24,178 nt of DNA from a virus (lineage: Duplodnaviria; Heunggongvirae; Uroviricota; Caudoviricetes): the IMG/VR virus record IMGVR_UViG_2537561992_000036; one strand, 5' to 3'. This document shows positions 9,001 through 15,000 of this stretch, piece by piece. Every line of letters starts with the position of its first letter. Position 1 is the first letter of the stretch. The position numbers are program-made.

Positions 9001-12000
9001 GCGTGGTCTTACGCTACAACAGTTAATTCATATGCTTATTATTTTAATTGCCTTGATAATAATCACCCCAGCATCAATTAAAGAGTGGGTAGATATAAGG
9101 AACCCCGAAATACTTCCAGATCACTGGATGTATTACGCAATGCTTTTGTGTATCAGTTATGTTCTGAACAGGGGGATGGAGTGAACCGCCCCGGAAATCC
9201 TGGAGACTAAACTCCCTGAGAAAGAGGTAAACAGGATGACTAAAAATACTCGTTTTTCCCCCGAAGTCCGTCAGCGGGCGATTCGTATGGTTCTGGAAAG
9301 TCAGGATGAATATGACTCACAGTGGGCGGCAATTTGTTCCATTGCCCCAAAGATTGGCTGTACGCCGGAGACTCTGCGTGTCTGGGTTCGCCAGCATGAG
9401 CGGGATACCGGGGGCGGTGATGGTGGGCTCACCAGTGCTGAACGTCAGCGTCTGAAAGAGCTGGAACGTGAAAATCGTGAACTGCGCCGCAGTAACGATA
9501 TCCTTCGCCAGGCTTCCGCTTATTTTGCGAAGGCGGAGTTCGACCGCCTCTGGAAAAAATGATGCCACTGCTGGATAAGCTGCGTGAGCAGTACGGGGTC
9601 GGACCGGTATGCAGCGAACTGCATATTGCCCCGTCAACGTATTACCATTGTCAGCAACAGCGACATCATCCGGATAAACGCAGTGCCCGTGCGCAGCACG
9701 ATGACTGGCTGAAGAAAGAGATACAGCGCGTATACGATGAAAATCACCAGGTATACGGTGTGCGTAAAGTCTGGCGTCAGTTGTTACGGGAAGGTATCAG
9801 AGTGGCCAGATGCACTGTGGCACGTCTCATGGCAGTTATGGGACTTGCCGGTGTTCTCCGGGGTAAAAAGGTCCGCACTACCGTCAGCCGGAAAGCCGTT
9901 GCCGCATGCGACCGCGTAAACCGTCAGTTCGTGGCAGAACGTCCAGACCAGTTGTGGGTGGCTGATTTTACCTGGGTAAGCACATGGCAGGGCTTCGTTT
10001 ATGTGGCGTTCATCATTGATGTGTTCGCCGGATACATCGTGGGATGGCAGGTCTCATCATCCATGGAAACAACATTCGTGCTGGATGCACTGGAGCAGGC
10101 GTTGTGGGCCCGTCGGCCGTCCGGCACAATCCATCACAGTGATAAAGGTTCTCAGTATGTATCGCTGGCCTACACGCAGCGGCTTAAGGAAGCCGGATTA
10201 CTGGCATCAACAGGGAGTACTGGCGACTCGTATGACAACGCGATGGCTGAGAGCATCAATGGTCTTTACAAAGCGGAGGTAATACACCGTAATAGCTGGA
10301 AAAACCGGACAGAAGTGGAACTGGCCACACTAGCGTGGGTGGACTGGTATAACAATCGACGATTGCTGGAAAGGCTGGGCCATATTCCTCCGGCAGAAGC
10401 AGAAAAAGCTTATTATGCTTCCATCGGAAATAATGATCTGGCAGCCTGAGTTCACAGATAAAATACTCTCCAGGAAACCCGGGGCGGTTCAGCGTGATGT
10501 TGATCGCGCAGAAACAGATTTACTTATCAACCTGTCAACGCTTACCCAGCGCGGTCTGGCAAAGATGATTGGCTGTCATGAATCGAAGATAAGCAGAACG
10601 GACTGGAGATTTATTGCTTCGGTCTTGTGTGCTTTCGGAATGGCATCAGACATCAGTCCGATTAGCAGAGCTTTTAAGATGCGCTTGATGGACTCACCAA
10701 TAAAAAACGCCCGGTGTGCAAGACCGAGCGTTCTGAACAAATCCAGATGGAATTCTGAGGGAATTACTGGATCAATCCACAGGAGTCATTATGACAAATA
10801 CAGCAAAAATACTCAACTTCGGCAGAGGTAACTTTGCCGAACAGGAGCGTAATGTGGCAGATCTCGATGATGGTTACGCCAGACTATCAAATATGCTGCT
10901 TGAGGCCTATTCAGGCGCAGATCTGACCAAGCGACAGTTTAAAGTGCTGCTTGCCATTCTGCGTAAAACCTATGGGTGGAATAACCAATGGACAGAATCA
11001 CCGATTCTCAACTTAGCGAGATTACAAAGTTACCTGTCAAACGGTGCAATGAAGCCAAGTTAGAACTCGTCAGAATGAATATTATCAAGCAGCAAGGCGG
11101 CATGTTTGGACCAAATAAAAACATCTCAGAATGGTGCATCCCTCAAAACGAGGGAGGTTCCCCTAAAATGAGGGAGATCCCTCAAAACGAGGGAAAATCC
11201 CCTAAAACGAGGGATAAAACATCCCTCAAATTAGGGGATTGCTATCCCTCAAAACAGGGGGACACAAAAGACACTATTACAAAAGAAAAAGAAAAGATTA
11301 TTCGTCCGAGAATTCTGGCGAATCCTCTGACCAGCCAGAAAACGATCTTTCTGTGGTTAAACCGGATGCTGCAATTCAGAGCGGCAGCAAGTGGGGAACA
11401 GCAGAAGACCTGACCGCCGCAGAGTGGATGTTTGACATGGTGAAGACCATCGCACCATCAGCCAGAAAACCGAATTTTGCAGGGTGGGCTAACGATATCC
11501 GCCTGATGCGTGAACGTGACGGACGTAACCACCGCGATATGTGTGTGCTTTTCCGCTGGGCCTGCCAGGACAACTTCTGGTCCGGTAACGTGCTGAGTCC
11601 GGCCAAACTCCGCGACAAGTGGACCCAGCTCGAAATCAACCGTAACAAGCAACAGGCAGCCGTGACAGCCAGCAAACCAAAACTCGACCTGACAAACACT
11701 GACTGGATTTACGGGGTGGATCTATGAAAAACATCGCCGCACAGATGGTTAACTTTGACCGTGAGCAGATGCGTCGGATCGCCAACAACATGCCGGGAAC
11801 AGTACGACGAAAAGCCGCAGGTACAACAGGTAGCGCAGATCATCAACGGTGTGTTCAGCCAGTTACTGGCAACTTTCCCGGCGAGCCTGGCTAACCGTGA
11901 CCAGAACGAACTGAACGAAATCCGCCGCCAGTGGGTTCTGGCTTTCCGGGAAAACGGGATCACCACAATGGAACAGGTTAACGCAGGAATGCGCGTAGCC

Positions 12001-15000
12001 CGTCGGCAGAATCGACCATTCCTGCCATCACCCGGGCAGTTTGTTGCATGGTGCCGGGAAGAAGCATCCGTTATCGCCGGACTGCCAAACGTCAGCGAGC
12101 TGGTTGATATGGTTTACGAGTATTGCCGGAAGCGAGGCCTGTATCCGGATGCGGAGTCTTATCCGTGGAAATCAAACGCGCACTACTGGCTGGTTACCAA
12201 CCTGTATCAGAACATGCGGGCCAATGCGCTTACTGATGCGGAATTACGCCGTAAGGCCGCAGATGAGCTTGTCCATATGACTGCGAGAATTAACCGTGGT
12301 GAGGCGCTCCCTGAACCAGTAAAACAACTTCCTGTCATGGGCGGTAGACCTCTAAATCGTGCACAGGCTCTGGCGAAGATCGCAGAACTCAAAGCTAAGT
12401 TCGGACTGAAAGGAGCAAGTGTATGACGGGCAAAGAGGCAATTATTCATTACCTGGGGACGCATAATAGCTTCTGTGCGCCGGACGTTGCCGCGCTAACA
12501 GGCGCAACAGTAACCAGCATAAATCAGGCCGCGGCTAAAATGGCACGGGCAGGTCTTCTGGTTATCGAAGGTAAGGTCTGGCGAACGGTGTATTACCGGT
12601 TTGCTACCAAGGAAGAACGGGAAGGAAAGATGAGCACGAACCTAATTTTTAAGGAGTGTCGCCAGAGTGCCGCGATGAAACGGGTATTGGCGGTATATGG
12701 AGTTAAAAGATGACCATCTACATCACTGAGCTAATAACAGGCCTGCTGGTAATCGCAGGCCTTTTTATTTGGGGGAGAGTAAATCGTGGCTGAGTTTATG
12801 CTCGTCGCACTCAAATGCGTTGGCGTTTGATGGATTCTTCTGACGTTATTTATTGTTCTGCATAGCTACATTCGTCTTGTGAATGACGGTAAAGACCCAT
12901 GGTATACGTTGTTTGGCGCTGCATTTGTCTGGGTGATTATCGGTGTTGCGCCTGTCGCTGTAGCAAAAATGGCGTGGCGTTTTGTGAGTTGAACTGAGGG
13001 TAAGTATCGATGGACGAATCAAGAAAGCAGTTTGAGGAATACGTTGCCAAAAAATTGAGATTACCATTCGAGATGATAACCGAGGCAAGAAATGGTGATA
13101 GGTACTTCGCATTTTCAAGCATGGATATTCGTCACTCCTTAAATGAGTGGTGGACTTTATGGCAGGCATCGCGAGCAGCTATTGAACTGGATATCGACTG
13201 GCCAGAATCGAATGACGACTTTTGGAAAGATGGTGAAGAAGGTGCTTATGCGATGGGTTATGAGGATGGGCGTGACAAAACGGTAATTGCAGTAATGAAA
13301 GCTATCAGAGCCGCTGGAATTAAAGAGAAGAATTTCGATGAAGCAAACAATATTCCTCCGAACTAAGCAACAACAGCAAGCCGCAATCAACGCCATCCTC
13401 GCAACACCACTCGATAAAGACAAGCCAGTCACCATCCGCATTACTGACTACAAGCGCAACCTTGACCAGAACGCAAAATTTCACGCGATGCTGGCGGATA
13501 TCGCACGTCAGGTTCAATGGTGCGATAAGTGGTTAAAACCAGAACAATGGAAGGTTTTGTTGATTAGCGGTCATGCAGTGGCAACAAAGCAGGAAGCTGA
13601 TGTTTTGCCCGGCCTTGAAGGCGAATACGTCAACATTCGCGAAAGTAGCGCGCAGATGAGTGTGAAGCGTATGGCAAGTCTGATTGAGTACACGACAGCA
13701 TGGGCTATTGGTCAGGGCGTCAGATTTACCGACAGGAGGTACGAATGAGACGACAGCGACGAAGTATCACCGACATAATCTGTGAAAACTGCAAATACCT
13801 TCCAACGAAACGCTCCAGAAATAAACGCAAGCCAATCCCAAAAGAATCTGACGTAAAAACCTTCAACTACACGGCTCACCTGTGGGATATCCGGTGGCTA
13901 AGACATCGTGCGAGGAAATGACAATGCTTTTAATTCAACCTGGATTTGGACTTAGCATCAAAAAAGGCCACATGTTTGGCGAGAAAGAGTCACAACGAAA
14001 AATGGTGTCTATCCGGTTGCCATTTATCAGTATTTATTGGCTAAACAGGGAGGCAACAAATTATTGGTATACATGCGCCAGAGCAGCATTTAACGACCCT
14101 GACTGGTTTGTGAAAAACCACTGAACCGCCCCGGGTTTCCTGGAGAGTATTTTATCTGTGAACTCAGGCTGCCAGATCATTATTTCCGATGGAAGCATAA
14201 TAAGCTTTTTCTGCTTCTGCCGGAGGAATATGGCCCAGCCTTTCCAGCAATCGTCGATTGTTATACCAGTCCACCCACGTTAGTGTGGCCAGTTCCACTT
14301 CTGTCCGGTTTTTCCAGCTATTACGGTGTATTACCTCCGCTTTGTAAAGACCATTGATGCTCTCAGCCATCGCGTTGTCATACGAGTCGCCAGTACTCCC
14401 TGTTGATGCCAGTAATCCGGCTTCCTTAAGCCGCTGCGTGTAGGCCAGCGATACATACTGAGAACCTTTATCACTGTGATGGATTGTGCCGGACGGCCGA
14501 CGGGCCCACAACGCCTGCTCCAGTGCATCCAGCACGAATGTTGTTTCCATGGATGATGAGACCTGCCATCCCACGATGTATCCGGCGAACACATCAATGA
14601 TGAACGCCACATAAACGAAGCCCTGCCATGTGCTTACCCAGGTAAAATCAGCCACCCACAACTGGTCTGGACGTTCTGCCACGAACTGACGGTTTACGCG
14701 GTCGCATGCGGCAACGGCTTTCCGGCTGACGGTAGTGCGGACCTTTTTACCCCGGAGAACACCGGCAAGTCCCATAACTGCCATGAGACGTGCCACAGTG
14801 CATCTGGCCACTCTGATACCTTCCCGTAACAACTGACGCCAGACTTTACGCACACCGTACACCTGATGATTTTCATCGTATACGCGCTGTATCTCTTTCT
14901 TCAGCCAGTCATCGTGCTGCGCACGGGCACTGCGTTTATCCGGATGATGTCGCTGTTGCTGACAATGGTAATACGTTGACGGGGCAATATGCAGTTCGCT

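Follow-up and report, generated by a model that had tools for sequence, protein, structure and literature searches.

The closest described counterparts of the replication module analysed here are those of the Stx phages 933W and P27, whose O protein is of the six-iteron type, with 13 additional amino acids and the substitution G17E (PMC7466680). The present locus resembles these two phages in having six iterons in O, 13 residues more than lambda O, the Gly17Glu change and a lambda-like P. It is best read as the cII'-O-ori-P-ren replication module of an Stx-phage-type (six-iteron) lambdoid prophage. Unlike the 933W/P27 module, however, the record has O and P with broken frames, pR, cro and N are missing upstream, an IS629 element abuts a truncated cII, and stx genes are absent downstream of Q within the window (the whole 24,178-nucleotide stretch that we analysed, whose 3' edge falls in the lysis cassette).

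The source of the window is a draft contig (ADUN01000092.1) of E. coli EPECa14. The prophage sits at att-lambda adjoining ybhC (1-1284), with int at one end of the element (1419-2489), and more than 100 complete genomes have the same ybhC/prophage junction. The nearest relatives are the prophages of SJ2D, E2865, 10153 and others, which share 99.9% identity over 24 kb, the ybhC site, the pair of IS629 copies and the deletion of the immunity region. Relatives carry nleH, cif and espJ as cargo; in SJ2D the far end is ybhB-bioA, and the head genes, from the protease to gpU, have been deleted by an IS66 element. The undeleted layout at this locus is that of 07_3636, which has N, cI, cro and intact O and P. 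The features that frame the replication genes in the window are as follows.

8963 to 9181, plus strand: sieB remnant, codons 1-73 of 142, cut by the left IS629 (by tblastn, the 07_3636 sieB matches over residues 1-73)
9182 to 10491, plus strand: left IS629/IS1203-like element (IS3 family), a 1310-bp match that marks the control-region deletion
10492 to 10758, plus strand: cII remnant, codons 11-99, joined to the IS end, with a PF05269 match
10700 to 10816, minus strand: oop-like antisense unit from a consensus scan, with a promoter-like site (10816 to 10788) and a terminator (10734 to 10704)
12423 to 12713, plus strand: ren, intact, 96 aa, the same as in relatives, where it is labelled 'protein ren'
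14122 to 15431, minus strand: second IS629 copy, an inverted simple insertion in an ORF between ninE and ninF, with a 3-bp duplication (CAC)

The left IS629 stands in place of everything from sieB codon 74 to cII codon 10. Its flanks (GAG on the left, GCG on the right) show no target-site duplication, and it encodes orfA (108 aa, PF01527) and orfB (296 aa, rve), with an ALIL frameshift pseudoknot at 9517-9633. The associated deletion took N, cI and cro together with the 3' half of sieB and the first ten codons of cII, so pL, pR and nutR must have gone too; RefSeq labels the sieB of relatives 'super-infection exclusion protein B, missing C-terminus'. The N-like, cI and cro proteins of 07_3636 have no tblastn match anywhere in the window, which bears out the earlier suggestion that immunity was lost. 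A weak consensus scan found no sigma-70-like promoter on the plus strand between the IS element and O, and the oop-like unit lies at what we take to be the position of lambda pO/oop. The second IS629 copy splits orf133 and has its own pseudoknot (14980-15096); the two copies form an inverted repeat (9177-10492 and 14121-15436).

That the entire immunity and early-control region went with the IS629-associated deletion is the solid result of the analysis, and would by itself account for an inability to be induced or to replicate. With N, pL, cI, cro, pR, nutR and the 5' end of cII gone, O and P would be deprived of their promoter, and ori of the pR transcription that activates it. Such a prophage would be unable to fire its origin or to replicate on its own, and O and P would not be expressed, whether their frames are open or not. 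The element is thus a defective lambdoid prophage at att-lambda independently of any indel in O or P. The earlier note had described a cryptic prophage unable to replicate, and had pointed to the disrupted replication genes together with the loss of immunity and Q. The conclusion stands by way of the deletion, but part of its grounds does not: Q is intact, and the O/P frameshifts are the weakest evidence for crypticity, because they are private to one draft, are all of 1 bp, and on repair give proteins seen intact elsewhere.

The lesions themselves were mapped by a five-way alignment of the window with lambda, phage 21, CAU16175 and E2865, and concern three features.

10791 to 11727, plus strand: O, replication initiator of Stx-phage type, with two 1-bp deletions; 312 aa once repaired
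11138 to 11262, no strand assigned: ori, six iterons inside O (11138-55, 11159-75, 11177-94, 11198-214, 11221-38 and 11244-62)
11724 to 12426, plus strand: P, helicase loader, with one extra G; 233 aa once repaired

Over 10700-12500 the window is 97.6% identical to lambda, the close match that had been noticed before, and 98.4% identical to phage 21. It shares with both phages the gene order from the 3' part of cII through O and P to ren, and the O/P and P/ren overlaps. The sole larger difference is an in-frame 39-bp insertion, equal to two extra iterons; otherwise a few substitutions and three 1-bp indels set the record apart. The iterons were aligned to the annotated ones of lambda and are embedded in O, and an AT-rich arm (about 11263-11310) follows directly after them. 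In O, AAA has become AA at 10983-84 (codon 64/65), and because of this missing A frame 0 ends at 11063 after 90 aa. A second loss, from A6 to A5 at 11286-90, lies in the AT-rich arm of ori. As the earlier note had it, O can be read only in three consecutive pieces: the alignment and the ORFs (10791-11063, 10988-11413 and 11239-11727, all in different frames) agree, and the frame is continuous only with two bases restored. PF04492 (Phage_rep_O) is matched by repaired O with E = 6.2e-36 over residues 22-115, and the 90-aa fragment was also flagged as PF04492. In P, GG has become GGG at 11795-97, directly past codon 24 (Pro), so the shift after about 24 codons reported previously is confirmed. 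The first frame of P ends at 11894 after 56 aa, and the remainder is read from 11755/11851 to 12426; P matches PF06992 with E = 1.1e-61, in the record with its frame broken past codon 24. The lesions are therefore specific changes in a near-identical homologue, not a chance pattern of ORFs.

These changes are almost entirely confined to the one record. Of all contigs in a collection of 153 billion genes, only the source record itself encodes the truncated products of O (90 aa) and P (56 aa). When 61-nt probes spanning each indel were searched in 5,426 complete E. coli genomes, the first O indel had no exact match among 1,784 homologous places and the P indel none among 3,138. The A5 variant of the second O indel was found in only five unrelated records in that search, and also in a draft of strain DEC10B. 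None of the three is present in the closest genomes (99.9% identical over all 24 kb), in CAU16175 or in 07_3636. A genuine pseudogene would be expected to share its lesion with related strains or to show it in independent sequence; all 14 comparators lack the lesions. Repairing three bases restores both genes: repaired O is exactly P0041, a protein intact on 12-20 contigs, and repaired P is identical to WP_000788880.1, the P of 07_3636. Both repaired products also occur, without any difference, among the annotated proteins of many EHEC/EPEC prophages. The earlier note had named a sequencing correction restoring O and P as the finding that would overturn its reading; we judge this the more likely outcome.

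Further private indels of the same size occur outside O and P. The cII remnant lacks a T between 10678 and 10679, a 1-bp deletion that puts its last ~24 codons out of frame. None of the 14 comparators has this deletion, and with the base restored the translation is the same as SJ2D cII. Another indel affects the excisionase gene.

2435 to 2686, minus strand: xis, with a private extra A (A4 to A5 at about 2500-2504) that replaces the last 12 residues

No frameshifted xis product of this kind is on record. In non-coding runs, at 18543-49, 19755-61 and 23178-83, there are three more such changes, T8 to T7 twice and A7 to A6, which, like that in xis, are the run-length signature of homopolymer miscalling. 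The cII-O-P-ren module thus has four private indels and no private substitution, and the window as a whole has eight isolated private 1-bp indels against about five private substitutions. These counts exclude a cluster at 21012-21080, which holds about two residual indels; its nine differences were considered as errors and set aside, since they mostly represent another natural allele (best 96.9% elsewhere). If 10-25% of natural mutations are indels, as in E. coli mutation-accumulation spectra, the module counts have a binomial probability of 1e-4 to 4e-3 and the window counts one of 8e-6 to 6e-3.

On these statistical grounds, we infer that the O and P indels are likely base-calling/consensus errors of a draft assembly, concentrated in a module of which such genomes have several copies. 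The genes in the strain itself are then probably open and encode an O of 312 aa and a P of 233 aa. Record-private 1-bp run-length changes that outnumber substitutions, in coding and non-coding sequence alike, resemble the errors of early pyrosequencing-era drafts, and the DEC10B draft shows the same. From its accession series, the EPECa14 assembly is presumably 454-era; literature searches by assembly/accession or strain name found no description of how the strain was sequenced. In one respect the pattern departs from classic long-homopolymer error: three of the four module indels lie outside runs or in runs of at most three bases.

Alternatively, the frameshifts may be real and private to the strain, with cII', O, P and xis neutral since the IS629-associated loss of pR and the regulators, and decaying by slippage-type 1-bp indels. 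Real frameshifts would not surprise, because the prophage is already decaying and its lytic genes are under relaxed selection. The element is demonstrably degenerate, and the coding indels fall only in genes useless to a locked-in prophage (xis, cII', O and P); int, erf, ninB, rusA, Q, lpxR, the lysis genes and both transposases are unhit. Moreover, variation of the A6 run at 11286 has arisen repeatedly among other genomes. The indels are also clustered, with four of about nine events in 1.1 kb of unselected genes (scan P of about 0.035), which relaxed selection could also yield. A history of mismatch-repair deficiency would raise the natural indel share, and all five private substitutions are transitions. 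Against this, the indel-to-substitution ratios are far from natural spectra, and neutral decay of a genuine pseudogene would be expected to leave private substitutions, of which 10526-12789 has none. The lesions are shared with none of more than 1,300 genomes, and the four module indels are absent from all 10 contigs fetched for carrying the same O allele. In addition, the real lesions of this lineage are larger and common to several strains (IS insertions, 67-bp and 14-bp indels, an internal stop). Weighing both sides, we regard genuine decay as possible but rather unlikely.

The sister clade (SJ2D, E2865, 10153 and others) has a bearing here, since its independent O lesion is real and common to more than 20 complete genomes. 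In this clade a 67-bp deletion leaves three iterons and a frameshifted O, with P intact, whereas the window keeps all six iterons and has private 1-bp indels instead. Were the frameshifts in the window real as well, the two together would amount to repeated parallel inactivation of O/ori/P in an effector prophage (nleH, cif, espJ) locked in by the IS629 deletion. We consider this scenario unlikely; if true, it would be a small natural case of stepwise prophage domestication, possibly reflecting selection against a residual active origin.

Sequencing or consensus error, the reading that we prefer, gains from the behaviour of the module in other assemblies. Many short-read assemblies yield it as a separate contig, 2,263-2,266 bp long, whose ends are the same throughout (10526-12789 of the window), and E2865 carries O and P four times. 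The module is thus repeated DNA, for which a draft consensus is least reliable. The DEC10B draft contig (AIGQ01000025.1) shows ten 1-bp indels scattered over 6 kb of this module, the A6 to A5 change of the window among them, which again speaks against genuine decay. Some of these ten need not be errors, however, since DEC9C, too, is annotated with the truncated ren seen in DEC10B.

A repeat of this kind also raises the prospect that the consensus is a chimera of at least two paralogous O-P copies (a collapsed or surrogate-placed repeat), in which case the six-iteron array and the P haplotype would be mis-assigned as well. The window follows the type of its att-locus relatives at 11660, 11722 and 12307 and the CAU16175/L023 type at 11700, 11817, 11826 and 12021, and in no complete genome do the IS629 junction and six iterons occur together. 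On the other hand, recombination between prophages naturally yields the same mosaic pattern, and 07_3636 has six iterons at the same locus, so the array is probably ancestral there. The one paralogue compared, the O-P copy of E2865 at 619 kb, was rejected as a source of a mosaic P, being far more divergent. A chimera, which is a sub-case of the error explanation and not exclusive of it, is in our view quite improbable.

A functional role for the frame changes, through programmed frameshifting or usable split O/P polypeptides, is barely conceivable. The shifts are conserved in no relative, two successive -1 shifts and one +1 shift would be needed, and the first O fragment ends within the DNA-binding domain. 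No slippery-site/structure match was found at the O and P shifts, and apart from the ALIL pseudoknots of the two IS629 copies the window has no recoding signal; with neither conservation nor signal, programmed frameshifting was rejected.

The biological weight of the O/P frameshifts is accordingly small on either main reading. If they are errors, as we think likely, they serve as a warning against taking frameshifted 'pseudogenes' in multi-copy phage modules of old drafts as prophage decay. If they are real, they represent commonplace gene decay in an effector prophage of a well-known EPEC/EHEC type that was defective already.

Downstream, the antiterminator region reads differently from the earlier proposal that Q had been lost, which proved mistaken. 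Three features are involved.

17353 to 17424, plus strand: 72-bp remnant of a first Q, mapped by alignment offset from the SJ2D label 'antitermination protein, missing C-terminus'
17568 to 18527, minus strand: lpxR moron (PF09982), after the first-Q remnant
19001 to 19690, plus strand: intact Q antiterminator, 229 aa (PF06323, E = 1e-91, 306.8 bits), the same across the interval as SJ2D WP_001097238.1

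The earlier note had read O in this record as legible only in three consecutive frames, P as changing frame after about 24 codons and the sequence as otherwise following lambda closely. All three points stand. The open reading frames (ORFs), taken from an ORF listing and from direct reading, are broken as described, and aligning this stretch to the phages lambda and 21, along with two E. coli prophages, traced the breaks to exactly three 1-bp differences: two deletions in O and an extra G in P. Identity over the stretch is 97.6% to lambda and 98.4% to phage 21. The sole larger change relative to these phages, a 39-bp insertion in frame, gives six iterons in place of four. 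The Stx phages 933W and P27 share the window's O type, which has been described for them (six iterons plus Gly17Glu; PMC7466680). The frames in the record and its isolated private indels (absent from the comparators) are as follows.

10791-11063, 10988-11413 and 11239-11727, plus strand: O ORFs, in three different frames
11724-11894, plus strand: 56-aa P ORF, followed by the remainder of P, reaching 12426
10983-84: first O indel, AAA to AA, O codon 64/65
11286-90: second O indel, A6 to A5, in the AT-rich arm of ori
11795-97: P indel, GG to GGG, directly after P codon 24
10678/10679: cII' indel (cII remnant fused to IS629), T missing, just past an oop-like terminator
2435-2686, minus strand: xis, extra A (A4 to A5), last 12 residues replaced
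18543, 19755 and 23178: T8 to T7, T8 to T7 and A7 to A6, respectively

In the record, the cII' deletion extends the cII' ORF into O (138 aa, 10415-10831). If real, the extra A in xis would make the record xis-defective too.

We consider the O and P frameshifts to be probably artefacts of the record, including the case of a consensus assembled from paralogous copies. When the three bases are restored, O becomes a 312-aa protein matching, letter for letter, one that is intact on 12-20 other contigs, and P then equals the unbroken P of 07_3636 (a strain with the undeleted prophage). The O and P indels and that of cII' were absent from all ten fetched contigs with the same O allele. Moreover, 61-nt probes spanning each indel, searched in 5,426 complete E. 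coli genomes, gave no exact match at any of 1,784 homologous places for the first O indel or of 3,138 for the P indel. The A5 variant at 11286-90 was found with its probe in five unrelated complete genomes, and the A6 run at 11286-11290 is prone either to slippage or to repeated miscalling.

The mutation spectrum points the same way. Four private indels lie in the replication module (cII'-O-ori-P-ren, 10526-12789), which has no private substitution: wherever it differs by a substitution from the sister clade (close relatives with the same prophage), other genomes share the change. The whole window holds eight isolated private 1-bp indels (xis, the four module sites, 18543, 19755 and 23178) against about five private substitutions. 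If indels make up 10-25% of natural mutations, as in E. coli mutation-accumulation data, such ratios have a binomial P of 1e-4 to 4e-3 in the module and of 8e-6 to 6e-3 over the window. The indels also cluster, with 4 of about 9 events in the module (scan P about 0.035). Draft consensus is weakest in repeats, which would explain this clustering, since the module behaves as a multi-copy repeat common to several prophages per genome: many unrelated short-read assemblies yield cII(3')-O-P-ren (10526-12789) as an isolated contig of 2,263-2,266 bp with identical ends (L019-L024). The sister-clade strain E2865 carries four copies of O and P. In the window, the P haplotype alternates between types, suggesting a chimeric consensus of paralogous O-P copies. 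Judging by its accession series, the assembly is probably a pyrosequencing-era draft. A second draft, DEC10B (contig AIGQ01000025.1), shows ten scattered 1-bp indels, including the same A6 to A5, against six substitutions over 6 kb of the same module; its truncated ren is also annotated in DEC9C, so this comparison draft may hold some real lesions. Separately, window 21012-21080 differs from the sister clade at nine positions within 70 bp. Other genomes of E. coli come closer to it (96.9%), so that it is mostly an alternative natural allele or a patch acquired by recombination, with about two private indels left over.

The DEC9C annotation also bears on a less likely reading, that of real, very recent, strain-private decay. 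The prophage was already degenerating and the genes hit are unselected, all coding indels lying in genes that a locked-in prophage has no use for. Of the module indels, three fall in very short runs or outside runs, and all five private substitutions are transitions, so that a mismatch-repair-deficient history is possible. The relatives have a genuine O lesion common to strains: more than 20 complete sister-clade genomes (e.g. E2865 and SJ2D) have lost 67 bp between iterons and are left with three iterons and an O that is frameshifted. Their P is intact. Against decay stand the privacy of the first O indel and the P indel, the four module indels unaccompanied by any private substitution, and the recovery of known proteins on repair. 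Functional recoding of the frames is extremely improbable. All six iterons are kept in the window (11138-11262), so either the strain branched off before the 67-bp deletion or the array was mis-assembled.

Autonomous replication would be lost in any case. The earlier note's conclusion of a cryptic prophage unable to replicate alone is sound; what accounts for it is that the immunity and early-control region was lost in an IS629-associated event, rather than the state of the O and P frames. That immunity is lost, as the note also held, is confirmed by the elements below and by tblastn, which found no match in the window to the N-like, cI or cro proteins of 07_3636.

9182-10491: IS629/IS1203-like element, left copy, replacing sieB codon 74 through cII codon 10
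14122-15431: second IS629 copy, inverted, a simple insertion with CAC duplication

The undeleted order in 07_3636 is sieB, N-like, cI (LexA/S24 type), cro, cII, O (312 aa, six iterons), P and ren. The left copy, with orfA and orfB both intact, lacks a target duplication, consistent with its having arisen by deletion. In lambda, pR transcribes O and P, and ori firing needs pR-driven transcription; the module would thus be silent here whatever its frames. A consensus scan, a weak test, found no sigma-70-like site on the plus strand between the IS and O. Both IS629 copies contain ALIL frameshift pseudoknots (Rfam), and the inverted pair brackets cII'-O-P-ren-ninB-ninE (3.6 kb) in a composite-transposon-like layout.

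Q, which the note had counted as lost, is present intact in a mosaic late-control region (17353-19690) that carries a host-modifying cargo gene. A Q remnant, lpxR, a ylcG-like ORF and the intact second Q lie there in tandem.

From 17353: first Q remnant, 72 bp
17568-18527, minus strand: lpxR (lipid A deacylase) moron, downstream of the Q remnant
19001-19690: intact Q (PF06323, 307 bits)

Downstream of Q, a DUF1737/SASA-family esterase gene, presumably nanS-p-like (window 21164-23028; L012 23030-24880), is split by a 14-bp insertion (21391-21404). The insertion is common to the window and SJ2D, and the gene is intact in 07_3636; the split is a real lesion common to strains.

Under either reading of the frames the finding is ordinary: a known defective effector-prophage type with a known Stx-type replication module. 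In a collection of 153 billion genes, exactly one contig, ADUN01000092.1 (GCA_000188755.2), encodes the truncated products of O and P, annotated as Escherichia coli EPECa14 proteins. The window is 99.9% identical to a prophage that more than 100 complete E. coli genomes carry beside ybhC (att-lambda); at the far end, the relatives' prophage contains nleH, cif and espJ and terminates at ybhB-bioA. In relatives (SJ2D), a deletion caused by an IS66 element took out the head genes, protease through gpU. In the right half of the SJ2D prophage, nleH, cif and espJ, which are type III effector genes, lie towards the right end together with a DUF1076 gene.
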